Of a stretch of DNA of 64,000 nt, positions 51,806-64,000 are shown piece after piece (positions within the stretch are counted from its first letter, which is position 1; every line of letters begins with the position of its first letter). Under the pieces are notes generated by a model. The model ran no database searches. It saw only the letters and a program-made list of their open reading frames with translations, and had not been told where the DNA came from. Location of the stretch: contig JAHIVV010000012.1 of assembly GCA_018816525.1 (NCBI GenBank), positions 2,253 to 66,252 on the forward strand, written 5' to 3'. Made by a program: the position numbers and the translations under genes. This DNA comes from Elusimicrobiota bacterium. GTDB lineage: Bacteria > Elusimicrobiota > Endomicrobiia > CG1-02-37-114 > XYA2-FULL-39-19.

Positions 51806-53134
51806 ATGGCTCAGGAAAAAAGTTTAAAATTTTCTGCTTTGGATGGTTTTTTTGCTTCCGTAATGACGGGGTTTACTTTAAATTACACAATTCCGTTTGC
51901 TCTTGTTCTGGGCGCGACTTTTTTTCAGATAGGCCTGCTTACTTCTTTTCCTCAAATAGTCGGATCTTTTATTCAATTAAAATCGGTAGACATTGTTGAA
52001 AAAGTAAAAGGGCGGGTCAGATTTATTACTATCTGTATCATGCTTCAGGCGCTATCCTGGATAGCTATTTCGGTGCTTCATTTCATTTTTAAAAAAAATC
52101 CGATGTTTATCTATATAGTATTGGTCACATTTAACACCGTTTCAGGAGCTTTGTTCGTGCCTGCCTGGTATTCTTTAATGAGCGACACAGTTGACAAGAA
52201 CAGTTATGGAAAATATTTTGCCTGGCGCGGCAGGATAATGGGTTTTATCAATATAGGCAACAGCCTGCTTGCGGGATTCTTTCTGTACGCAATGACAAAA
52301 AACATTTATCTTGCCTTTTTTGTTTTATTCGCCATAGCAGGGGTATGCAGGTTTATTTCAGGGTATTTTGTAAGCAAAATGGATGATATCCCGCCTGTAA
52401 TAGTTCCGGAAAAAGCTTTTAATTACTGGGATTTTTTAAAAAGGTTTCCTAAAGGCAATTTTATAAGGTTTACATTTTTTGTTTCAGGAATAAATTTTGC
52501 CACCTATATTGCAAGCCCCTTTTTCACTGTTTATATGTTTAAAGAGCTTCATTTTACTTATGCGGTTTATACATTGATTGTAACTTTATCCACGCTCATA
52601 GGTTTGCTTATCGTGCCCTCCTGGGGCAAGCTTGCCGATAAGGTTGGAAATGTAAAAATTTTACAGATTTGCGCTGTATTTCTGCCGGTAATTCCTGTTT
52701 TGTGGTGTTTCTCCGGGAATCCATATTACCTTTTTATAGTTAATATTTTCGCTGTTCATTTATTGAACGGATTTAACCTGAGCACATTCAATTTTATTTT
52801 TGATGCGGCTTCTCCCGCAGTAAGGACCAGATGCATAGGCTACTTTAGTTTCACAAACGGCCTCCTGATTGGACTGGCCTGTTTACTGGGAGGGTTTATA
52901 GTAATTTATGTACCGGCTTTTATGAACGCTTCTAAAATTTTAAACGTATTTTACATTTCGAGCCTGCTAGGAGCAATAGTCAATATTTTTGGGATTAATT
53001 CACTCAAGGAAGTAAGGCATAGCAATAAGATTGAAGATTCAAAATTAATATTAACAGTGTTTGGAATAACGCCTGTGTTAGAATTGAGTAATGAAATTTT
53101 AGGACTCAGGTTCCACCGGTTAAAAGAGAAATAA
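51806..53134 (+). CDS. MFS-type transporter
   Basis: 442 aa, about 12 TM segments, MFS-like topology. Confidence 0.65.
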   Translation: MAQEKSLKFSALDGFFASVMTGFTLNYTIPFALVLGATFFQIGLLTSFPQIVGSFIQLKSVDIVEKVKGRVRFITICIMLQALSWIAISVLHFIFKKNPMFIYIVLVTFNTVSGALFVPAWYSLMSDTVDKNSYGKYFAWRGRIMGFINIGNSLLAGFFLYAMTKNIYLAFFVLFAIAGVCRFISGYFVSKMDDIPPVIVPEKAFNYWDFLKRFPKGNFIRFTFFVSGINFATYIASPFFTVYMFKELHFTYAVYTLIVTLSTLIGLLIVPSWGKLADKVGNVKILQICAVFLPVIPVLWCFSGNPYYLFIVNIFAVHLLNGFNLSTFNFIFDAASPAVRTRCIGYFSFTNGLLIGLACLLGGFIVIYVPAFMNASKILNVFYISSLLGAIVNIFGINSLKEVRHSNKIEDSKLILTVFGITPVLELSNEILGLRFHRLKEK

Positions 53135-54189
53135 TGAAGTCATTTTTTGCTATAGCCATTTTATTTATTTCCGTAATTGTTGTTTCGGCTGAAGATGCGG
53201 CTGTTGAACTCAATCTTGACGCTTCTACCGATACAGTTATTGATATTTCAAGCAATTCGGCCCTTCGGGAAGATTTTTCATACCGGATGGAAACATTTCC
53301 TTACAATCAGTTTTTTTCTTCCGGCACTTTATTTGTTGTTGTAAGTTTTGACGGCTGCAAAGAATTGTCCCGGTGGCAGGATATTCTGAATTTTTCAAAG
53401 GCCAACGATATAAAATTTACATTTTTTATAAGCGCGGCCTATTTCGTTCCTGAAAAAGAGAAGGCCCTTTATTACGAACCCACAAACCCGGTAAAAGAGG
53501 GTTATTCTCGTATCGGTTTCGGCGGAACCCAAGAAGACGTGGCAAAACGAAAAAAATATGTTTTAGAAGCTATTGAATCAGGCAATGATATTGAATCTCA
53601 TTTATGCGGGCATTTTGACGCAAAAAATTGGGATGAATCTGCCTGGCGCATAGAATTTGAAGAATTCAATGAGCTCTGTAGTTTTCTGCCTGAACCTGTT
53701 CACCATATCCGCTTTCCTTTACTATCAATGAATAAATATGTTTATCCGGTCCTGGCGGAATTCAACTTTAAATCAATAATGTCCGTGGATGAAGATGAGT
53801 TTGACAAATTTAACCGTGTTACAATACAAATACCCAAAGGGGGCCAGCCAGTGTCATTTCTTGAATTTCCCATGGGAACTGTGCAGGAAGGTAATTCAAA
53901 AGTGATGCTGATGGATTACAATTTTTCCGTGCATGATCAAAGGAATAAAATTCCAGTATCAAAAATACAGAAGAAAATGGTTGATATATATATACAGGAA
54001 GCAAACCGCTGTTTTACCCAAAACCGCCCGCTTTTGTTAAGCCACCATTTTTCAGTAACCAACAGCCAGGATTCTTACTGGAAAGCGTTGAAGGAAGTTA
54101 TACTCAACTTAAAAGCGATATATCCCACTAAATTTATCACGCTTTCACAGCTTAGTGAAATGTGCAACCCGGATAACGCGGTACGTTAA
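53134..54189 (+). CDS. secreted hypothetical protein, possibly divergent polysaccharide deacetylase (CE4-like)
   Basis: Signal peptide. VSFDGCKE and HLCGHFD weakly resemble the CE4 TFDDG and His motifs. Confidence 0.3.
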   Translation: MKSFFAIAILFISVIVVSAEDAAVELNLDASTDTVIDISSNSALREDFSYRMETFPYNQFFSSGTLFVVVSFDGCKELSRWQDILNFSKANDIKFTFFISAAYFVPEKEKALYYEPTNPVKEGYSRIGFGGTQEDVAKRKKYVLEAIESGNDIESHLCGHFDAKNWDESAWRIEFEEFNELCSFLPEPVHHIRFPLLSMNKYVYPVLAEFNFKSIMSVDEDEFDKFNRVTIQIPKGGQPVSFLEFPMGTVQEGNSKVMLMDYNFSVHDQRNKIPVSKIQKKMVDIYIQEANRCFTQNRPLLLSHHFSVTNSQDSYWKALKEVILNLKAIYPTKFITLSQLSEMCNPDNAVR

Positions 54190-54233
54190 TTTGTTATAAT
54201 TTTCATCTTATAGTATAATCAAGGTATAAAATT

Positions 54234-55658
54234 TTGTCCCGATTGTTCCTTCAAGTAAGATATCGGGATGCCAACTCGGCAAGGGAGCAACAATTGAACA
54301 CAGACAAAGAGAAAAACATTATTCAAAGATTTGGGCAAGTATTCAGCAATCTTTCAAAACCGGAGGACAAAACGCCTTCAAAACCTGTTGTACAGCCGGT
54401 TAATGTGCCGACAGTTCCGGTTCACGCAGCCGCACCTAAACATGTCGAACATAAACCTCAGGGCCCTTCGGCAAGTTTTTACGGCCTGGGTATTGCGCCC
54501 AGGATTCTTGAATCCCTGGCTAAATTAAAATTTACCGAACCGACACCGATTCAGCATAAAGCTATTCCGATTGCCCTTGAAGGAAAGGATTTAATCGGTG
54601 TTGCCCAGACCGGTACCGGGAAAACTCTTGCATTTTGCATTCCTATGTACCAGCGCCTGGCGCAAATTTCAAAAAACGGGCTTATACTTCTTCCTACCAG
54701 GGAACTTGCGCTGCAGGTGGATGAAGTATTCAGAAAAGTCGGCCATACATTTGGCATAAAAACAGCTGTGCTTATCGGCGGGGCGCCTATGGGCGCCCAG
54801 ATTTCGGCCCTAAGAGCCAAACCGCGCATTATTATTGCCACGCCCGGCCGTTTGCTTGACCACCTTCAACAAAGAAATGTGACACTTTCAGAAGTAAGCC
54901 TAGTCGTATTGGATGAAGCAGACAGAATGCTGGATATGGGTTTTGCTCCGCAGATAGACCGCGTGCTTCAAAGCGTAACCAAGGACCGGCAGACAATGTT
55001 GTTTTCTGCCACGCTTCCTGCAGAAATATTAAGAATTGTAAACAGGTATATGAAGCTTCCGGTAAGCATTGAAATTGCGCCGTCGGGTACGGTAGCTGAA
55101 AACATAGACCAAAAATTATTTGTAGTAAACAAAGAATCAAAATTGAAACTGCTTGAAAAAATTGTCAGGCAATATACCGGCTCCATACTTTTATTTACGC
55201 GCACAAAACACGGCGCCAGGAATATTACCCAGAAACTGAGGAATATAAATTGCCAGGCGGCGGAAATACATTCAAACCGTTCGTTAAGCCAGCGCAGGGA
55301 AGCGCTCGACGGTTTCAGGTCAGGCAAATACAGGATATTGGTAGCAACGGATATCGCATCCCGCGGCATTGACGTAAAAAATATTGAATTAGTAATAAAT
55401 TATGATATCCCAGAGGACCCGGAAAATTATGTACACCGTATCGGCAGGACCGGCCGCATCGGCGCGCAGGGACAGGCAATTACCTTTGCTACCCGCGAGC
55501 AATATAAGGACGTAAAGAATATTGAAAGATTGATCAAAAATGCACTGCCTGTTTCCAGCCACCCGGATATACCTTCGGAGGCTTTTTTCCAGCCCTCTAA
55601 TTCCTTTGTTTTAAGAAACAATTTCCGCAGGCCCAGGACTTCCATGCGCCGCAGATAA
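54234..55658 (+). CDS. DEAD-box ATP-dependent RNA helicase
   Basis: Q motif, Walker A AQTGTGKT, DEAD (VLDEADRMLDMGF), SAT, HRIGRTGR. TTG start in the track; N-terminal 90-aa extension is of uncertain reality. Confidence 0.9.
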   Translation: MSRLFLQVRYRDANSAREQQLNTDKEKNIIQRFGQVFSNLSKPEDKTPSKPVVQPVNVPTVPVHAAAPKHVEHKPQGPSASFYGLGIAPRILESLAKLKFTEPTPIQHKAIPIALEGKDLIGVAQTGTGKTLAFCIPMYQRLAQISKNGLILLPTRELALQVDEVFRKVGHTFGIKTAVLIGGAPMGAQISALRAKPRIIIATPGRLLDHLQQRNVTLSEVSLVVLDEADRMLDMGFAPQIDRVLQSVTKDRQTMLFSATLPAEILRIVNRYMKLPVSIEIAPSGTVAENIDQKLFVVNKESKLKLLEKIVRQYTGSILLFTRTKHGARNITQKLRNINCQAAEIHSNRSLSQRREALDGFRSGKYRILVATDIASRGIDVKNIELVINYDIPEDPENYVHRIGRTGRIGAQGQAITFATREQYKDVKNIERLIKNALPVSSHPDIPSEAFFQPSNSFVLRNNFRRPRTSMRRR

Positions 55659-55720
55659 AATGCATAAATAACCCCCGCGGACAGGAACATCGGTGTTGAT
55701 TATCAGGGGCCGAAATAACT

Positions 55721-56914
55721 ATGGCGACTTTAAAAATAACATTAATTCTTCTTTTTCTGATTTTATGGATTAAACGTAAGCAGGACCTGGGCGCAGGGCT
55801 GCTAATAGGTTCTTTTGTGCTTGGTATTTTAAGCGCAGGGTTTTTTGACGTGTTAAAGTTTATGTTCCGGTCGGTTTACGCTACCGACACCATTGATTTA
55901 ATTGTCGTAATGATCCTGATTTTTTATTTCATTGAAATTTGGAGCAAGACCGGCGGCACAGCATCGCTTTGCAAAAATTTAAACCATGTAATAAAGGATT
56001 CGCCTGTGGCGCTTGTAATCCCTCCGGCAATAATCGGGCTTATTCCGATAATGGGCGGGGCGATGGTATCCGCTCCTTTAGTTAAGGATTCCTTTTACGC
56101 GAAAAATGTTTCACCCGCAAAACAGACTTTCCAGAACTTCTGGTTCAGGCATATCTGGGAGTATGCAATTCCCACCTATCCCGGGGTAATTATTTCAGCA
56201 GGGATTCTCGGCGTATCCTACGGTAAAGTTTTTGCCCTGAATTTTCCCTTAACTATTTTTGCAATAATAATCGGCTCGATAGTAGGCCTGACAGGCATTA
56301 AATACAGGAAGCCCGATTTGTTAAATAATGATACAAGCGGCATAAAAGGACTGCTGGTAGCGTTCTTGCCTCTTTTTGTAATTTTGGTGCCGGCCCTGGT
56401 TTTTAAAGTTCCGCTGTTTCTTTCATTGGCAATTTCCATAATTCTTATGGCGCTTGTAAATAAAATAAGCATCCCCCGGCTTAATGGCCTATTTATAAAA
56501 AGTTTTAATTTTAATATAATCAGCGTTGTAGTAGGCATTATGGCTTTCAAATACGTCATGGAAGACACTGGGGTAATAGTGCAGATGTCCAGGGAATTCA
56601 TCAGCTGGAAAATCCCTGTTTTGTTATTATTGTTTTTACTCCCGTTTATTACAGGTTTTATTACGGGAATTACGCAGGCGTTTGTGGCTATTTCATTTCC
56701 GCTTCTTATAAATTATCTCAGCGCAGATAACAACCTGCTTACCTGGGCTTATGTATCGGGTTATATGGGGGTCCTGCTTTCACCCGTCCATGTATGCCTG
56801 GTCCTGACGAAAGAGTATTTTGGCGCATCCTGGAAAGATGTTTATAAAATACTGATAATCCCGTGCCTGTTCATGCTGGCAGCGGCTTTTTTCATAATCA
56901 AAATCAGAGGATAA
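55721..56914 (+). CDS. polytopic membrane protein (DUF401-like / putative transporter)
   Basis: 397 aa, about 10 to 12 TM segments. No diagnostic motif recognised. Confidence 0.4.
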   Translation: MATLKITLILLFLILWIKRKQDLGAGLLIGSFVLGILSAGFFDVLKFMFRSVYATDTIDLIVVMILIFYFIEIWSKTGGTASLCKNLNHVIKDSPVALVIPPAIIGLIPIMGGAMVSAPLVKDSFYAKNVSPAKQTFQNFWFRHIWEYAIPTYPGVIISAGILGVSYGKVFALNFPLTIFAIIIGSIVGLTGIKYRKPDLLNNDTSGIKGLLVAFLPLFVILVPALVFKVPLFLSLAISIILMALVNKISIPRLNGLFIKSFNFNIISVVVGIMAFKYVMEDTGVIVQMSREFISWKIPVLLLLFLLPFITGFITGITQAFVAISFPLLINYLSADNNLLTWAYVSGYMGVLLSPVHVCLVLTKEYFGASWKDVYKILIIPCLFMLAAAFFIIKIRG

Positions 56915-57043
56915 ATAAAACAATAATTGGAGGCTAAGCAGTAGATATATCAAAAAAATTACAAGGCATATTATTACAAGTAACGACGCAAAAGAAATGA
57001 TAAAAGATACTGCCTATAGATTGGCAAAAAAGGCTTATAAATT

Positions 57044-58255
57044 ATGAGTAAAACAATCGATGAAATAAACGAAAAAATCAAGAAAGGCCAGGCTGTTATA
57101 GTTACCGCTGAAGAAATGATAGATATCGTGGAACAAAAAGGCGCCGCTAAAGCAGCTCAGGAAGTGGATGTGGTCACAACAGGCACTTTCGGGCCCATGT
57201 GTTCCAGCGGCATGTATTTAAATCTGGGGCATTCAAAACCAAGAATAAAAATAGGAGGCGGGAGCTGTTATTTAAATGACGTTCCGGCATATTGCGGTTT
57301 CGCCGCAGTTGATATTTACCTGGGTTGCACCCAAACGCCGGATTTTGACCCGAGAAATGCGGATTATCCCGGCGATTTCAGGTATGGCGGCGGCCATGTT
57401 ATAGAAGAATTTGTTGCAGGTAAAGACATACGGCTTGTTGCTATGGCTTATGGCACAGATTGCTACCCCAGAAAAAAACTTGAAACCCTTGTAAATATAA
57501 AAGACGTTAATGAAGCAGTATTGTTCAATCCGAGAAATGCTTATCAAAATTACAATGTAGCAGTAAACCTTTCGGATAAAGTTATTTACACCTACATGGG
57601 GACTCTGCGGCCAAAATTGGGTAATGCAAATTATTGCAGCGCCGGCCAGTTGTCGCCGCTTTTAAATGACCCTCTTTTTAAAACTATCGGCATAGGAACA
57701 AGGTTGTTTTTGGGCGGCGGTATCGGTTATGTAGCATGGAACGGCACCCAGCATAATCCTCACGTAAAACGAAAAGAAAACGGTACTCCCTGCGTGCCTG
57801 CCGGAACGCTTGCGCTGATAGGGGATTTAAAACAAATGAAATCCGGATGGCTCGTTGGGGCAAGTTTTCAGGGCTACGGCGCTACTTTAAATGTCGGCGT
57901 CGGAATACCGATTCCGATCCTAAATGAAGAAATGGCAAAATACACTGCTGTCAAAGATGACGCTATATTTGCCCCGGTTGTAGATTACAGCGAAAATTAC
58001 CCGAAAATGATTCCCGGAAATCTCGGCGAAGTTTCTTATGCGCAATTAAAATCAGGCAAAATAACTGTCCAGGGAAAAGAAGTCCCCTCAGGGTCGCTTT
58101 CAAGTTATTCAAAAGCCAGAGAAATTGCGGAAGTCTTGAAAGACTGGATTGTGAAAAAGCAATTTTTTCTTTCAGAACCTGTCGCGCCTCTGCCTGGGCC
58201 TGATTCAATCACCACTTTTAAGGCCATGCATGAGAGGCTCGGGGCAAAAGGATAA
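57044..58255 (+). CDS. DUF39 (COG1900) homocysteine-biosynthesis sulfur-incorporation enzyme homolog
   Basis: 403 aa. DUF39-like architecture with a conserved Cys-containing N-terminal half (GTFGPMCSSGMYLN...GGGSCYLNDVPAYCGF). Confidence 0.65.
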   Translation: MSKTIDEINEKIKKGQAVIVTAEEMIDIVEQKGAAKAAQEVDVVTTGTFGPMCSSGMYLNLGHSKPRIKIGGGSCYLNDVPAYCGFAAVDIYLGCTQTPDFDPRNADYPGDFRYGGGHVIEEFVAGKDIRLVAMAYGTDCYPRKKLETLVNIKDVNEAVLFNPRNAYQNYNVAVNLSDKVIYTYMGTLRPKLGNANYCSAGQLSPLLNDPLFKTIGIGTRLFLGGGIGYVAWNGTQHNPHVKRKENGTPCVPAGTLALIGDLKQMKSGWLVGASFQGYGATLNVGVGIPIPILNEEMAKYTAVKDDAIFAPVVDYSENYPKMIPGNLGEVSYAQLKSGKITVQGKEVPSGSLSSYSKAREIAEVLKDWIVKKQFFLSEPVAPLPGPDSITTFKAMHERLGAKG

Positions 58256-58263
58256 GGTATCCG

Positions 58264-58671
58264 ATGTTCACAAAAAGAGTCATAATGAGATATCCCACAA
58301 AACTGGTTGATAAGCCGATAGTAAGCAAGCTTGTCAAAGAGTTCCATCTTGATTTTAATATTTTAAAAGCGTCAGTAACACCCAATGAAGAAGGGGTGTT
58401 AGTTCTTGAGCTGATCGGCGACCGCAAGAATTACAATAAAGCAATGGATTATCTGAAAGGCTTAAACGTAACCATACAGCCTTTTAAGCATGATATAATC
58501 CGCAATGAAAAAAAATGTACCCATTGCGGGGCCTGTGTTGTAGCCTGCCCAGCGGAAGCATTAATAGTAGAAACCAAAAGCAGAAAAATTATTTTCGATG
58601 AGAAAAAGTGTATAGCCTGCGAACTTTGCATACCTATCTGCCCGGTCCGCGCTATGGAAATGCATTATTAA
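58264..58671 (+). CDS. NIL-domain protein fused to 2x[4Fe-4S] ferredoxin (MA1822-like)
   Basis: NIL domain (VLVLELIGD) followed by CTHCGACVVACP and CIACELCIPICP. Confidence 0.7.
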   Translation: MFTKRVIMRYPTKLVDKPIVSKLVKEFHLDFNILKASVTPNEEGVLVLELIGDRKNYNKAMDYLKGLNVTIQPFKHDIIRNEKKCTHCGACVVACPAEALIVETKSRKIIFDEKKCIACELCIPICPVRAMEMHY

Positions 58672-58675
58672 AGCC

Positions 58676-59419
58676 ATGGTTTATGAACCCCGTTTTTACC
58701 GCGATTGGACGCTTTCGGAAACCGAAAGCGATTTAGCCTCTTTTGAAGCAATAGTTAAGGAAACCGACCTTTTTATCCGCGTTAGTTCCGCTAAAAAAAA
58801 CCTTCAGAAAAAAGCCATAAATTCAATTCTGAAATACCGCCGGTCAATCGAGAAATATATTTCCCGCCATCCTGAATTTTTAAAAGCGCTGGCGCCGGTT
58901 ACCCTGGAAAAAGATGCCCCCTCAATAATCAAAGATATGATTGAGTGCGCAAAAACCTGCAATGTAGGCCCTATGGCATCTGTTGCCGGGGCTATTGCGC
59001 AGTATGCAGGCAATGATTTGCTCGCCTATTGCGATGAAGTGATTGTAGAAAACGGGGGAGATATTTTTATCAAGACGAATAAAAAAAGGCTGGTAGGAGT
59101 TTATGCCGGCAGTTCAGTATTTACAAAAAAAATTGCACTTGAAATCCTTCCGGAAAAGACCCCGCTTGGGATCTGCGCTTCTTCTGGAACCGTGGGACCC
59201 AGTTTAAGTTTCGGCAAAGCGGACGCAGTTATAATTGTTGCGCGTTCAGCTATCTTGGCTGACGCTGCGGCCACAACCGTAGGCAATGCAATCAATGAAG
59301 TATCCGATATACCAAAGGGATTGGACCTTGCCAAAACAATTAAAGGAATTAAAGGCGTCATTATTATCAAGAACGACAAACTGGGCGCCTGGGGCGAGGT
59401 AAAAATTACAGTTTGTTAG
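58676..59419 (+). CDS. UPF0280-family protein
   Basis: 247 aa, UPF0280/ApbE-like fold features. Tightly linked (4-nt gap) to the NIL-ferredoxin gene. Confidence 0.5.
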   Translation: MVYEPRFYRDWTLSETESDLASFEAIVKETDLFIRVSSAKKNLQKKAINSILKYRRSIEKYISRHPEFLKALAPVTLEKDAPSIIKDMIECAKTCNVGPMASVAGAIAQYAGNDLLAYCDEVIVENGGDIFIKTNKKRLVGVYAGSSVFTKKIALEILPEKTPLGICASSGTVGPSLSFGKADAVIIVARSAILADAAATTVGNAINEVSDIPKGLDLAKTIKGIKGVIIIKNDKLGAWGEVKITVC

Positions 59420-59484
59420 AGGGTAGCTTTAGCAATGCTATCCGGGAAAAAATGTACATGAAAATCGATAATCATTTATTAAAG

Positions 59485-60051
59485 TTAGAATGATACTTTT
59501 GGAACTGTTTTAGCAACTTCTTCCGCTTTAAAGTAAGCATCCTTCTTTTGGAAGCCGCCCATAGAAGCAACTATATTGCTTGGAAAACGCTGAACTAAAA
59601 TATTGTAAATCCGGACAACTTCATTGTATCTTTGTCTTTCAACGGAAATCCTGTTTTCAGTTCCTTCAAGAGAGTCCTGCAATCTGATGAAATTCTCGTT
59701 TGCCTTTAATTGAGGATAATTTTCCGCAATCATTAGCAGGCGGGAAACCGCGCTGTCCAGTTCGCCGGTAGCTTTTACTTTGTCATTGGTTGTTTTTGCG
59801 CCGATTAATTTTGCCCTGGCTTCTGCAACGCGCGTGAATATTTCATTTTCATGTTTTGCATAGCCTTTTACCGTGTTTATCAGGTTCGGTATAAGGTCAA
59901 GCCTTCTCTGGTACTGGTTTTCTACCTGGGCCCAGGATGCGTTGATGCTTTCGTTAAGCGTTACAAACTTATTAAAATAAGAAGCGTACATCCCGCCGAC
60001 AATTACTACAACGCCTACAATCACTCCTAAAACAATCCACACTTGTTTCAT
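59485..60051 (-). CDS. lemA: LemA family protein
   Basis: N-terminal TM plus conserved LemA helical region (AQVENQYQRRLDLIPNLINTVKGYAKHE). Confidence 0.85.
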   Translation of the reverse strand: MKQVWIVLGVIVGVVVIVGGMYASYFNKFVTLNESINASWAQVENQYQRRLDLIPNLINTVKGYAKHENEIFTRVAEARAKLIGAKTTNDKVKATGELDSAVSRLLMIAENYPQLKANENFIRLQDSLEGTENRISVERQRYNEVVRIYNILVQRFPSNIVASMGGFQKKDAYFKAEEVAKTVPKVSF

Positions 60052-60102
60052 TTTATCCTCCAGTATTTTTGAGTCGGACGAAACCCTGAAAATCCTTTCA
60101 AA

Positions 60103-60816
60103 TTATTTTCGGGGTACCATAAAACTACCTACAAAATCAATAACTTTTTCAATCTCATTTAAATAAGAGTTGAACAAAACTTCTATCTCAACTTTTTGTG
60201 CCGCCTTGTCGCCTTCCTTAATTTTAGAAACAGTTATAAAAGGTTCAGTATTAATTCTTACCTGCTTGGATAACATGCTTAAAGCGTCAATTTTTTTCGG
60301 CGGCGGTACCTGGCCGGTTAAGCGTAGGACATTCCTGAAAAGAACAAGAAAAGTTGAAATTGAGTTTATCAACAATTCTTTGATTTCTGATTGTTTGCCT
60401 TTAGTTGCCATAAACTCTTGGCAAAGTTTGAGGTATTTGCTTTTAAGCTCGTGTTCGCACTCATGGCGCAGGTTTGAAGAAACAATTTCCATGTTAACAA
60501 AGGGGTTTTCGCCGTAAAGGATTTTGTGATGCTCTTTCATATCGAGGAATTCTATGGGAAAAACGTCAAATGATTCCTCGAATTGATTGCAGGTAAAGAT
60601 GACTGGTACAGAATTATTGCTTTTTATCCACTTGTTCACAGGTTTTTGAAGTAATTTTAGTTCAGTAAATCCAAAATTTTCCAATGTAAGCAGTAAATTA
60701 TAGTCAGAACGTTTTTTTACCGCCTCTCCGCTTGCCTGGGACCCGTAAAGTACTATTGATTTTAGGTTTGAACCCAGTGTGTTTTTTAGTTCTTCAACAA
60801 ATTTTGTAAGTTCCAT
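60103..60816 (-). CDS. nucleotidyltransferase-fold protein (minimal NTase with GS...D motif plus helical C-terminal domain)
   Basis: IVLYGSQASGEAVKKRSDYNLLL resembles the Pol-beta NTase hG[GS]x9-13Dh[DE]h motif with the second acidic residue replaced by N. Likely start is ATG 60814-60816 (SD AAAGAGGTG 4 nt upstream), not the TTG at 60837 used by the track. Confidence 0.4.
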   Translation of the reverse strand: MELTKFVEELKNTLGSNLKSIVLYGSQASGEAVKKRSDYNLLLTLENFGFTELKLLQKPVNKWIKSNNSVPVIFTCNQFEESFDVFPIEFLDMKEHHKILYGENPFVNMEIVSSNLRHECEHELKSKYLKLCQEFMATKGKQSEIKELLINSISTFLVLFRNVLRLTGQVPPPKKIDALSMLSKQVRINTEPFITVSKIKEGDKAAQKVEIEVLFNSYLNEIEKVIDFVGSFMVPRK

Positions 60817-60829
60817 TGTCACCTCTTTC

Positions 60830-60866
60830 ATACCCAATGCCAGTCGCTTGGAAGACTATTGGGTAT
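60830..60866 (-). promoter_or_regulatory. conserved SD-adjacent hairpin element, copy C (intercistronic, TPM to NTase gene)
   Basis: mRNA sense ATACCCAAT-AGTCTTCCAAGCGACT-GGC-ATTGGGTAT followed by GAAAGAGGTGACAATG. Confidence 0.5.
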
Positions 60867-60884
60867 ATTTTCCCCTCCATGTTT

Positions 60885-61670
60885 TTACCAGCCTCTCGAT
60901 GCTCCACCGCCACCGCTTGAGCCTCCGCCGAATCCTCCCCAGCCGCCTCCTCCGCCGAATCCTCCGCCACCGCCTCTTCCTCCGGAAAATAGCACGTTAA
61001 GCAGCAGGAAAAAAAACAGCCCAGGGTGAAAAATCATCAGGTAAAGCAGGATAAGAAATATTATTGCGATAAAAATAATGTTTGCTAAACCTAATTTGAG
61101 CGGGGGATAACTATTTTGAGCAAGAGTTGGGATTGCGGTGTTTTCAGGTATTAAACCGTTACTAAGATCAACATTGTATTCTTTTGCTACTAGCAAGGCT
61201 ATTCCGTAAACGCCTCCCAATATTCCTTGTCCGGTATCACCCTGTTTAAAGAAGGGAATAACAGCCTTGTCCAGGATTTCACCGCAGAGCCCATCCGGTA
61301 AAGCTCCTTCCAGCCCGTAACCAACTTCAATGCGCAATTTCCGGTCTTCTGACGCTATAAGGAAAAGAATGCCGTTATTTTTATCTTTCTTCCCTATTTT
61401 CCACTTTTCAAATAATTTTACGGAATAGTCTTCAATAGCGAGGCCGTTAAGATTTTTAACCGTTACTACCGCAACTTCTGCGGAAGTTTTTTGTTCGATT
61501 TCGGCCGCAATTTTATTGATTTGTAATTGTGTTTCAGAAGGTATTATCTGGGCGAAATCGGATACCCAGCCCTGCGGGCGGGGTGTATCTAAAACGCAGC
61601 TTTGTGGGAAAGCTGAAGCTGTTAAAGATAATAAAAATGTATAAGCCAACAAATATTTTCTCATTCGCAC
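60885..61670 (-). CDS. TPM-domain (DUF477, YgcG-like) protein with Gly-rich C-terminal tail
   Basis: Signal peptide, TPM phosphatase-like domain, TM segment, GGRGGGGGFGGGGGWGGFGGG tail. Confidence 0.8.
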   Translation of the reverse strand: MRMRKYLLAYTFLLSLTASAFPQSCVLDTPRPQGWVSDFAQIIPSETQLQINKIAAEIEQKTSAEVAVVTVKNLNGLAIEDYSVKLFEKWKIGKKDKNNGILFLIASEDRKLRIEVGYGLEGALPDGLCGEILDKAVIPFFKQGDTGQGILGGVYGIALLVAKEYNVDLSNGLIPENTAIPTLAQNSYPPLKLGLANIIFIAIIFLILLYLMIFHPGLFFFLLLNVLFSGGRGGGGGFGGGGGWGGFGGGSSGGGGASRGW

Positions 61671-61752
61671 TATTCTACAGTATTATTTGATTGTAGTCAA
61701 CTCACCCGATACCGTACATTTGTGGTATCTAAAAAACCCTCTAAAAAAACCC

Positions 61753-61781
61753 TTGACTTTTTTGAAAAGCCATACTATACT
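61753..61781 (+). promoter_or_regulatory. sigma70-type promoter upstream of the riboswitch-like leader
   Basis: TTGACT (61753-61758), 17-nt spacer, TATACT (61776-61781). Confidence 0.45.
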
Positions 61782-61874
61782 TACAATATGCAAGCTTTTA
61801 ATAAGGCTTTTTTTGTTGTACTGTTCAAACAGATGGTTTTACTGTTTTTTTGATTAAATTTTTTCATTTCAAGA

Positions 61875-62001
61875 AGATCCGAAATGGCAAATCCCATGAA
61901 AATGGGAGACGCAAAGTTACAGGACTAAAGGTAAATGATTTAGAATCAGACCTATGCTCGCCGGACTGTCGAGAATGCTGGAAGCGCTTTCCTTTTAAAT
62001 T
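61875..62001 (+). ncRNA. candidate c-di-GMP class I (GEMM) riboswitch with terminator-like expression platform
   Basis: GGCAAA (61885-61890); hairpin TCCCAT-GAAA-ATGGGA with GNRA tetraloop (61891-61906); near-invariant GACGCAAAG (61907-61915). Tetraloop-receptor-like CUAAAG ... CUAUG downstream, then GGAAGCGCTTTCC stem (61979-61991) plus TTTTAAATTT. Confidence 0.55.
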
Positions 62002-62107
62002 TCTGTTGACAAACCTAATAAAACAGACTATATACGTATTAGGAGTGTTATAGGCGGAAGGGAGAGAAAAGCACTAGAAGGAACTATTAGGAGAATAGGT
62101 AATTTTT

Positions 62108-64000
62108 ATGAAAACCAGAATTTTTATTTTGCTGGTACAGTTATTTCTTTTCTGCGCGCAGGTTTCAGGCAGGGTGGGTGATGTGCAGATGAAGAGTGAC
62201 CATTCGTGGTATCCCGGCGAATTGGCTTGTTCTACCTTTGACCGTCTTTTTGCTTTTCAGTCACAAATATACACGAGGACAACAGGAAGAACAACAGTGT
62301 CTGACCAGGATAAGGCGGTGGCTTCCTGGTTTTTCAGAAACATATATTACTATCACGCTTTTGAAGGTCACGAGGACCTGGGTTATACTACTGTTGGCGC
62401 CACTCCCCATTTTAATGATGATTACTGGAAAGGGCTTTTTGCTTATGGACACGGTGAATGCGCGCCAGGCCATAACCAGATGACTGCAGAAATGGAATAT
62501 AAATTAGGCCACTGCAGGGCCAGGCAAACCGCAGTTGGTGGACACTCGTCTTTTGAGGTATGGTTAACAGGCACGGGTTATGGTTCAGGCAACTGGGCAG
62601 TAATGAATTGTGATCAGGGCACCGTTGTTTTTGATACGTCCACTTATACTTATATGCTTGGTCTGCACAAAGTTGTTTATGAAGATCAACAAAGTAGCGG
62701 TACTAATTACAATAATTATTCAAAGTATTCCTCTAATGCAGCGCCCAATGCAAATCAAGGTTGGTATAAAAACAGTATGTCAAGTTGGTACAGTATCAAT
62801 TTTGTAGGATATTGCAGTGGCTACCCGAGCGTTCCTCCGGTGGTAGAGTTAAGAAGCGGTGAGAAATTAAGGAGGTATCTTAAACCTGGTTTAGCTGATG
62901 GCAACACATATGTTTTTTTTGGTTATAATCAAGTATTGGCTGGCGTGGGTAGGGGGCCTGTCAGGGATGCCACCTGGTGCAACCAGCCGGATAAGATGTA
63001 CAGGGCAACTTCCGGTACTGGCAGTGATTATTCAAGAGGAATATATGGTAACGGTGTTTATACATATACTCCAAATTTTTCTGATGATTCTTACAAAGAA
63101 GGGGTAATCAGCGAAGATACAGGTTCTGTAACTTTTTATTTTTGCACGCCGTATGTTATCGGAGGGAGGCCTGCGCTGGCACGCAGGAATCAAAACGATA
63201 GCGGTGATTTATATCCATTTATGGTTGATTATGCAGGCGCCACGGAAGGTTTAGTAATTACAGGCAGCACTGTTGGTTGCACTGTCCAGGTTTCTTCTGA
63301 CAATGGAAATAGCTGGGCCTCAGCCCAGACCCTTTCAAATAGTTTGGATTTAACAGATTATGTAAAAGGCAACCACTCATATTTTTTGCGGTTTAACACA
63401 GCCGCTAATAACTTAAAAAGTAAAAATCTTACAATAAAGACCGTTACCCAGTGTAACGAGCGGCTAATACCGCATCTAAAGGACAATGGTTCAACGCTTA
63501 CATACCAGGCGTCGGGTAAAGCGGTTTTTAATGCTGGTCCTGGCAGGAAGCAGGCGCAGAAATATATAATCAGCGGCGGTTTTAACACTTCAGGAATAAC
63601 CATGGAAATTCCTACGCCGCACGGAGAAAAGATACTTGAAGTCTATGCTTCTGCGCTGGTAGGGTCAGGGGTTCCACCAAACACCTCTTGTATTTATAAA
63701 ATAGATTATTCCGTAAACAATGGTACGAGCTGGGAGTCAATAGTTGACAACTGGCAGATAGTTCGCAGAGGTTGGGAACCGAGTGATTTTCTATCAACCA
63801 GTTTTTACTATGGTAATAAAGATATTTCATCTAAAAATGCCGATAGTGTCAGAGTCCGGTTTTCTAATAATGGAGAAAGGGAATACAAGAGAGCGGAAGT
63901 ATATCTTGTTTATGAAAGCGCAGTGAATTCTCCTCTGTCAGTGAGATTTAATTATACTGACACTACAGGTAATCATACTGCAGAGAATACCTATCCTGCA
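62108..64000 (+). CDS. large secreted Gly/Tyr/Asn/Ser/Thr-rich protein, 3' end beyond the window (not in ORF track)
   Basis: Continuous open frame from ATG 62108 to the window end (>630 codons, translated by hand with no stop). Signal peptide MKTRIFILLVQLFLFCAQVSG. SD TAGGAGAATAGG upstream. Aromatic/Gly-rich beta-type composition. Confidence 0.7.
   Translation, partial: MKTRIFILLVQLFLFCAQVSGRVGDVQMKSDHSWYPGELACSTFDRLFAFQSQIYTRTTGRTTVSDQDKAVASWFFRNIYYYHAFEGHEDLGYTTVGATPHFNDDYWKGLFAYGHGECAPGHNQMTAEMEYKLGHCRARQTAVGGHSSFEVWLTGTGYGSGNWAVMNCDQGTVVFDTSTYTYMLGLHKVVYEDQQSSGTNYNNYSKYSSNAAPNANQGWYKNSMSSWYSINFVGYCSGYPSVPPVVELRSGEKLRRYLKPGLADGNTYVFFGYNQVLAGVGRGPVRDATWCNQPDKMYRATSGTGSDYSRGIYGNGVYTYTPNFSDDSYKEGVISEDTGSVTFYFCTPYVIGGRPALARRNQNDSGDLYPFMVDYAGATEGLVITGSTVGCTVQVSSDNGNSWASAQTLSNSLDLTDYVKGNHSYFLRFNTAANNLKSKNLTIKTVTQCNERLIPHLKDNGSTLTYQASGKAVFNAGPGRKQAQKYIISGGFNTSGITMEIPTPHGEKILEVYASALVGSGVPPNTSCIYKIDYSVNNGTSWESIVDNWQIVRRGWEPSDFLSTSFYYGNKDISSKNADSVRVRFSNNGEREYKRAEVYLVYESAVNSPLSVRFNYTDTTGNHTAENTYPA

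Follow-up and report, generated by a model that had tools for sequence, protein, structure and literature searches.

A c-di-GMP-I (GEMM-I, type 1) riboswitch aptamer with an unusual pocket base in the leader of a putative secreted-protein gene from an Elusimicrobiota bacterium

The segment at 61876–61973 on the forward strand of the window, the whole 64,000-nucleotide stretch of Elusimicrobiota bacterium DNA that was analysed, is a genuine c-di-GMP-I (GEMM-I, type 1) riboswitch aptamer. When the whole 64-kb window was scanned against 4227 Rfam families, RF01051 (c-di-GMP-I/GEMM-I) was found to match this segment end to end (model positions 1–87 of 87), with 61.4 bits against a gathering score of 35 and an E-value, referring to that search, of 1.4e-9. 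This was the sole above-threshold Rfam match in the window, and because it is full-length at such an E-value the aptamer is not regarded as a chance match. A permissive rescan of 61500–62300 returned the RF01051 match again and otherwise noise, with no match to RF01786 (c-di-GMP-II) at E ≤ 10. The preliminary description of this DNA had proposed a GEMM-I-like riboswitch in the leader and had named both families; the proposal was borne out by the full-length RF01051 match, RF01786 was not, and all the motifs that it listed were found by sequence inspection where it had placed them. The element probably functions as a c-di-GMP-I riboswitch that acts in cis on the downstream secreted-protein gene, with c-di-GMP accommodated via a G·U wobble. 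Thousands of GEMM-I riboswitches are known already, and the assignment would otherwise be routine annotation; here it places c-di-GMP riboswitch control in the barely studied phylum Elusimicrobiota. GEMM-I is among the best-known riboswitch classes (PMC7266159).

Architecture and class membership of the aptamer

The features of the aptamer and its leader are listed below; in aptamer numbering, 61876 is position 1.

61753–61781 (+): candidate sigma-70-like promoter, TTGACT-17-TATACT, matching the consensus at 10 of 12 positions and lying 95 nt before the aptamer
61876–61973 (+): c-di-GMP-I (GEMM-I, type 1) aptamer, RF01051
61878–61881 (+): probable 5′ strand of P1, UCCG, pairing with 61970–61974 (CG[A]GA), as judged from the sequence and the P1 register in the sampled aptamers
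61886–61891 (+): GGCAAA, read from the sequence
61886 (+): G61886, the G20 equivalent, at Rfam alignment position 11; G in 112 of 116 sampled aptamers
61892–61907 (+): P2 hairpin, UCCCAU-GAAA-AUGGGA, 6 bp with a GNRA tetraloop, from the sequence and the Rfam alignment
61908–61916 (+): conserved GACGCAAAG, with columns invariant or nearly so in 116 aptamers
61915–61967 (+): P3 stem, from the Rfam alignment, containing the tetraloop receptor, G61960 and two A·C mismatches
61925–61930 and 61952–61956 (+): tetraloop receptor, CUAAAG and CUAUG, read from the sequence
61969 (+): U at the equivalent of C92, the partner of ligand Gβ; Rfam model position 83, aligned with high posterior probability
61980–62001 (+): weak hairpin GGAAG-CGC-UUUCC (GGAAGCGCUUUCC, 61980–61992) followed by UUUUAAAUUU (UUUU-AAA-UUU), from folding
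62089–62093 (+): Shine-Dalgarno-like AGGAG, 14 nt before the ATG, with a second AGG at 62097–62099
62108–64000 (+): regulated ORF, starting at ATG 62108 and running off the window; in the sister contig it encodes 787 aa or more

The strands of P2 (61892–61897 with 61902–61907) enclose the GAAA loop, and the GNRA tetraloop of P2 and the tetraloop receptor of P3 give the type 1 architecture. Position 20, an A in GEMM-Ib, is G61886 here, and RF01051 scored higher on the window aptamer than the variant models of its clan. C61910 and A61913 are the equivalents of C44, of the interhelical pair, and of A47, which intercalates between the ligand bases; G61960 is the equivalent of G83, and C61910 and G61960 stand at the aligned interhelical positions, with next to no variation in either column of the sample. 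The roles of G20, A47, C92 and the C44–G83 pair have been described (PMC6140456, PMC5888326, PMC4744006), with G20 recognising the Hoogsteen edge of ligand Gα (PMC6140456). The possible pairs of P1 are G61881–C61970, C61880–G61971, C61879–G61973 and U61878–A61974, with A61972 bulged, so that only the top two are contiguous. The CG/CG top of P1 recurs in many of the sampled aptamers, as does the 4-nt register of J1/2. P1 of Vc2 has a bulged A as well. All the near-invariant unpaired nucleotides are intact, i.e., GGCAAA, GAAA, GACGCAAAG, CUAA, UAUG and the G83 equivalent. The unconstrained minimum free energy of the aptamer segment was −21.6 kcal/mol versus −15.1 kcal/mol for the GEMM fold, tertiary and ligand energy not being counted, and this predicted greater stability would count against the reading as a functional riboswitch.

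In fold and order of elements the window aptamer is the same as Vc2 of Vibrio cholerae (RF01051; PDB 3IRW/3MXH). Common to both are GGCAAA, P2 with its GAAA tetraloop, GACGCAAAG and a P3 with an 11-nt-type receptor, as well as the interhelical C–G pair, a short P1 with a bulged A, and G20 and A47 (PMC6140456, PMC4744006). The window aptamer is unlike Vc2 in its U at C92, two A·C pairs in P3, an A–U pair in the receptor where the consensus has G·U, a longer P3 loop with an extra 5-bp stem (UGAUU/AAUCA), and a 4-nt J1/2 where Vc2 has 5 nt; it also comes from another phylum and precedes another gene. The c-di-GMP-I riboswitches of Bacillus thuringiensis (Bc1/Bc2) and Clostridioides difficile are likewise GEMM-I elements in long leaders, with exported proteins downstream.

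For comparison with the family, a covariance model was built from the window aptamer. A scan of viral contigs for GGCAAA...GACGCAAAG gave 120 loci, and in the 99 scanned the covariance model accepted no more than 4 hits, located in 3 loci; because these were too few for statistics, the viral set was replaced by a metagenome scan, in which the pattern GGCAAA-N6-GAAA-N6-GACGCAAAG supplied GEMM-I sequences. With the model, 115 other aptamers were aligned (116 rows including the window copy); the sample holds type-1 aptamers with the exact core only, and the frequencies drawn from it are indicative. Across the 116 aligned sequences, 96% of cells were paired, 518 cells showed double-sided changes, and none of 500 shuffles was as good; by this alignment covariation the GEMM-I family structure is strongly supported. 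The 61.4 bits of the window aptamer fall in the lower third of the 55–83 bits spanned by 23 GEMM-I aptamers from metagenomes that have its core motif.

The pocket base U61969 and the P3 mismatches

The window aptamer deviates from the sampled family at three positions. Model position 83 was C in 103 of the 116 sampled aptamers and in all 74 of the best-scoring others, and it is U61969 in the window copy; the other rows without C at this position were low-scoring, truncated, or had a gap followed by C, and the C92 equivalent was C in the 4 viral examples too. In P3, which is thereby not canonical throughout, the mismatches are A61921·C61962 and A61924·C61957, each a canonical pair in 74 of the 74 other top-scoring aptamers. 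The second of these flanks the tetraloop receptor, in which A–U replaces G·U. The three deviations are absent from all 74 of the other full-length aptamers sampled; compared with the consensus, each is a GC-to-AT transition, and the intergenic region has 34% GC.

Rfam position 83 is taken by us to be Vc2 C92; the mapping is based partly on the Vc2 sequence and agrees with the published numbering of G20, A47, C44 and G83. The alternative alignment, with U61969 as an insertion and C61970 as C92, was rejected, as it needs a rare 6-nt J1/2 register and a G at the next, usually C, column, whereas the ungapped alignment puts the common CG/CG pairs at the top of P1, which favours U61969 as the C92 equivalent. 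Where G, A and C had been expected in the preliminary description at the positions of G20, A47 and C92, the first two were thus found and the third is U. Smith and colleagues are reported to have found in 2010 that C92 is not universally conserved in the GEMM-I family and that natural U92 variants keep c-di-GMP binding. Because of this variability of position 92, class membership stands despite U61969, which weakens the claim of standard specificity and not that of class membership. With its A·C pairs and a rare U where ligand Gβ is paired, the window aptamer is a natural test case for how far the GEMM-I pocket and P3 can change with function retained.

The regulated gene, its family and the sister strain

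The regulated protein begins with a signal-peptide-like MKTRIFILLVQLFLFCAQVSG and comprises an N-terminal domain with a putative transglutaminase/LapG-like Cys-His-Asp fold followed by three jelly-roll β-sandwich domains. Sequence profile searches of the protein gave no Pfam match above threshold, no NCBIfam match and no credible sequence match in the PDB; weak signals for BNR/Asp-box and reelin-subrepeat profiles recurred. C118 lies at the start of a helix, with H146 and D169 on the following strands, which is the canonical order for the transglutaminase-like fold, and the three residues are invariant in 120 homologues. The most fitting description of the product is that of a secreted enzyme or binding protein combining a putative transglutaminase/cysteine-protease-like fold with carbohydrate-binding-type modules. 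A large secreted surface protein or adhesin had been expected downstream of the riboswitch; the gene encodes a multidomain protein, secreted to judge from the signal-peptide-like start, with a transglutaminase/LapG-like domain and β-sandwich domains, and this protein is not a recognisable adhesin.

The identity of the regulated protein to LapG and the bacterial transglutaminase-like cysteine proteases is 9%, and it has no Pfam transglutaminase or BTLCP match. It is much larger than LapG, with three β-sandwich domains added, and no LapD or LapA partners were seen. LapG itself is under c-di-GMP control via LapD, and the resemblance is treated as a lead only. No c-di-GMP enzymes were seen in the window among approximately 20 ORFs checked, and a crude, insensitive scan for GGDEF/EAL motifs gave nothing convincing.

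The protein belongs to an unannotated family (62108–64000 and P0002–P0120) of approximately 640 aa with more than 150 homologues, mostly in metagenome-assembled genomes (MAGs) of Planctomycetota and Verrucomicrobiota. The jelly-roll domains of the family are BNR-bearing, and one homologue (L084) lies between GH2 and GH35 genes. For this widespread family with its cryptic transglutaminase/LapG-like domain, the riboswitch would be the first regulatory clue.

A partial protein of 787 aa from the Elusimicrobiota MAG GCA_043819315.1 shares 99% identity with the downstream protein, and its contig (L001) is colinear with the window (52108–64000 versus L001 1–11893). The two strains differ at 11 of 11,893 aligned bases, all at or after 61896: one difference lies in P2, ten lie in the ORF (six of them non-synonymous) and none in the upstream 9.8 kb. 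This clustering in the riboswitch-controlled gene suggests recombination or diversifying selection. The only aptamer difference, and the only one in the 421 nt of the leader, is A61896G in L001, by which an A–U pair of P2 becomes G·U with pairing kept; U61969 and both A·C pairs are common to both strains. The next closest homologues are 40–49% identical, mostly from Planctomycetota and Verrucomicrobiota MAGs, and since the sole close relative is near-identical and the next closest protein stands at 49%, no leader-specific covariation was obtainable. Upstream of the gene, the motif pattern was matched in L001 only, among 80 genome loci and L001, and when 18 homologue loci, three of them metagenome contigs, were searched with Rfam, no riboswitch was returned. 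Because the homologue loci lack it (80 by motif, 18 by Rfam), the association of riboswitch and gene is, on the loci compared, lineage-specific.

A TPM-domain gene on the minus strand of the window showed a promoter-like TTGACT-17-TAGAAT (61664–61700) that ends 2–8 nt before the possible starts GTG 61670 and ATG 61664, and its mRNA may be leaderless. The TPM-domain protein has a long glycine-rich C-terminal tail (GGRGGGGGFGGGGGWGGFGGGSSGGGGASRGW, 60885–60990, −).

Leader, proposed mechanism and competing readings

The position and orientation of the aptamer suit a leader element: ATG 62108 follows 135 nt downstream on the same + strand, and the upstream neighbour is divergent, the intergenic region between the two genes being 437 nt long. 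Apart from a 67-codon TTG frame, no long ORF crosses the aptamer on either strand. The sigma-70 promoter described earlier about 95 nt upstream is present as sequence, but promoter-like sites number 7 in 1.6 kb versus 3.7 expected by chance, which is not significant alone. Directly downstream of its predicted −10, a hairpin AAGCUUU-UAAU-AAGGCUU (−5.4 kcal/mol) is followed by U7 (61792–61816, +), and because of this the role of the promoter at 61753–61781 is uncertain. Mutually exclusive 4-bp hairpins CUGU/ACAG/CUGU (61821–61845) and then a second U7 come next within the region 61792–61852 (+). This arrangement resembles a terminator or attenuator preceding the aptamer; alternatively, the true promoter is nearer to the aptamer (TGATTAAAT, 61852–61860); from this extended −10-like element, noted by eye, the transcription start would fall approximately 8 nt before the aptamer.

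Downstream of the aptamer, the short GC stem with a U-run of the preliminary description is present at 61980–62001, but it does not make a credible terminator. The hairpin at 61980–61992 has 4–5 bp and approximately −1.4 to −2.6 kcal/mol, was not called in the terminator scan, and was rejected as an intrinsic terminator in view of the −12 kcal/mol or stronger of real terminators. In Bc1, approximately 220 nt separate the aptamer from the AUG, with two typical rho-independent terminators (PMC11218506), whereas the window leader has no credible one. A hairpin of −12 kcal/mol or stronger with a U-run within 160 nt was found in approximately 30% of the 74 sampled GEMM-I leaders and nothing comparable in approximately 60%, so a platform without a strong terminator is common in GEMM-I. 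Nor did folding support sequestration of the Shine-Dalgarno: between the locked bound fold and the free ensemble, the predicted accessibility of the Shine-Dalgarno, AUG and pyrimidine tract was unchanged, the Shine-Dalgarno being mostly unpaired with the aptamer locked or free (0.88 versus 0.93). A long-range pairing of AAAGUUAC with GUAAUUUU appeared in one fold and was absent from another fold window. By eye, UUUCCU (61988–61993) can pair with GGAAG (61980–61984) or with AGGAGA (62089–62094), and this dual pairing is the sole hint of an anti-Shine-Dalgarno arrangement, the folding being unsupportive of it as a switch. The terminator scan and the folding of the leader thus gave no recognisable on/off switch region.

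In the proposed mechanism, the RNA would adopt the standard two-hairpin fold, in which the GAAA tetraloop of P2 docks into the receptor of P3 and the C61910–G61960 interhelical pair and the short P1 complete the structure. The cyclic dinucleotide would lie at the junction and touch G61886, A61913 and position 61969, and c-di-GMP would be bound via a G·U wobble at U61969. Reduced affinity would be expected, since 61969 is U and two P3 pairs are A·C, so that the gene would respond to high c-di-GMP only. By analogy, this lowered affinity fits the in vivo data on Vc2 C92U, in which the response to c-di-GMP was greatly reduced and not abolished, and raised c-di-GMP partly restored it (bioRxiv 10.1101/617340). 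By stabilising P1 (61878–61881 with 61970–61974), binding would change what happens to the 135 nt of leader that follow. The output is, as a best guess, control after transcription initiation other than classical intrinsic termination; translation or mRNA stability might be its target, with the pyrimidine tract 61987–61996 pairing either with GGAAG (61980–61984) or with the Shine-Dalgarno. Ligand identity, affinity and output are what we infer from the sequence.

The three GC-to-AT transitions invite another reading, namely that the element descends from GEMM-I but has lost ligand control and is now a decaying, non-functional relic with an eroded platform. Such a relic would be consistent with G-to-A or C-to-T changes at positions invariant in 74 other aptamers, the 34% GC of the intergenic region, a leader without detectable terminator or sequestering structure, the Rfam score in the lower third of the sampled range, and the lack of the riboswitch upstream of every homologue checked. 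Neutral decay, however, would not spare the approximately 45 other conserved positions, which are intact and include all the unpaired invariants; moreover, the helices can accommodate A·C and G·U pairs, the single strain difference preserves a P2 pair, and Vc2 C92U still responds to raised c-di-GMP. Loss of function is considered unlikely.

It is also conceivable, and in our view quite improbable, that the pocket has changed its specificity and that G20/U92 prefers a mixed dinucleotide such as 3′,3′-cGAMP, with G61886 reading the guanine and U61969 forming a Watson–Crick pair with the adenine. This would be the mirror image of the GEMM-Ib 3′,3′-cGAMP riboswitches (Geobacter Gs1761), which have the same scaffold with a specificity changed by one pocket nucleotide; they have A20 and keep C92, whereas the window aptamer keeps G20 and is changed at position 92. 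That single pocket changes can retune the scaffold is known from G20A, which leads to cGAMP binding (PMC6140456), and G20A/C92U to c-di-AMP binding (PMC7288161). The U at C92 was obtained from two independent alignments, and the associated gene is atypical, its link to the riboswitch not being found in other lineages. Against this, G20/U92 occurs in one lineage (two near-identical strains) and not in a conserved variant class, RF01051 outscores the variant models of the clan on this aptamer, and no cGAMP synthase was seen in the window, nor do we know of one here. Natural U92 variants, moreover, reportedly keep c-di-GMP binding.

A more far-reaching proposal, to which little credence is given, is that G20/A47/U92 with the weakened P3 constitutes an adaptive, uncharacterised GEMM-I variant, either a low-affinity c-di-GMP sensor, responding to very high levels of the messenger only, or a sensor of a mixed dinucleotide (such as 3′,3′-cGAMP) in reversed orientation relative to GEMM-Ib. 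If true, a secreted enzyme of LapG-like transglutaminase fold would be under its control in Elusimicrobiota, and the processing of surface proteins would be tied, at the level of RNA, to signalling by cyclic dinucleotides.

Finally, a chance resemblance, or another RNA or coding feature matching the motif, for which only the general caution speaks that consensus motifs can arise by chance, is effectively excluded by the full-length match at E 1.4e-9, by the lack of a long ORF over the aptamer other than the 67-codon TTG frame, and by the viral matches to the pattern alone, which mostly failed the covariance model that the window aptamer passes strongly.

Beyond the window, short GEMM-like elements of 56–58 nt were observed in human-gut and other metagenome contigs (L232, L256, L263, L276 and L302). 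They have a normal GGCAAA-P2-GACGCAAAG half and a P3 cut to ACAGGGCCUGU with no receptor, are low-scoring and recurrent, and may be a miniature variant or truncated copies. The aptamers of L220, L224 and L211 scored best with RF03167 (c-di-GMP-I-GGC) and not RF01051, yet have the same core pattern. Two or three GEMM-I aptamers per contig were found in L205, L218, L219, L234, L236, L242, L244, L247, L257, L262, L292, L296, L300 and L301; in several of these (e.g., L218, L219, L234, L236 and L242) the copies lie 120–180 nt apart in a tandem-like arrangement, and in others they are kilobases apart.
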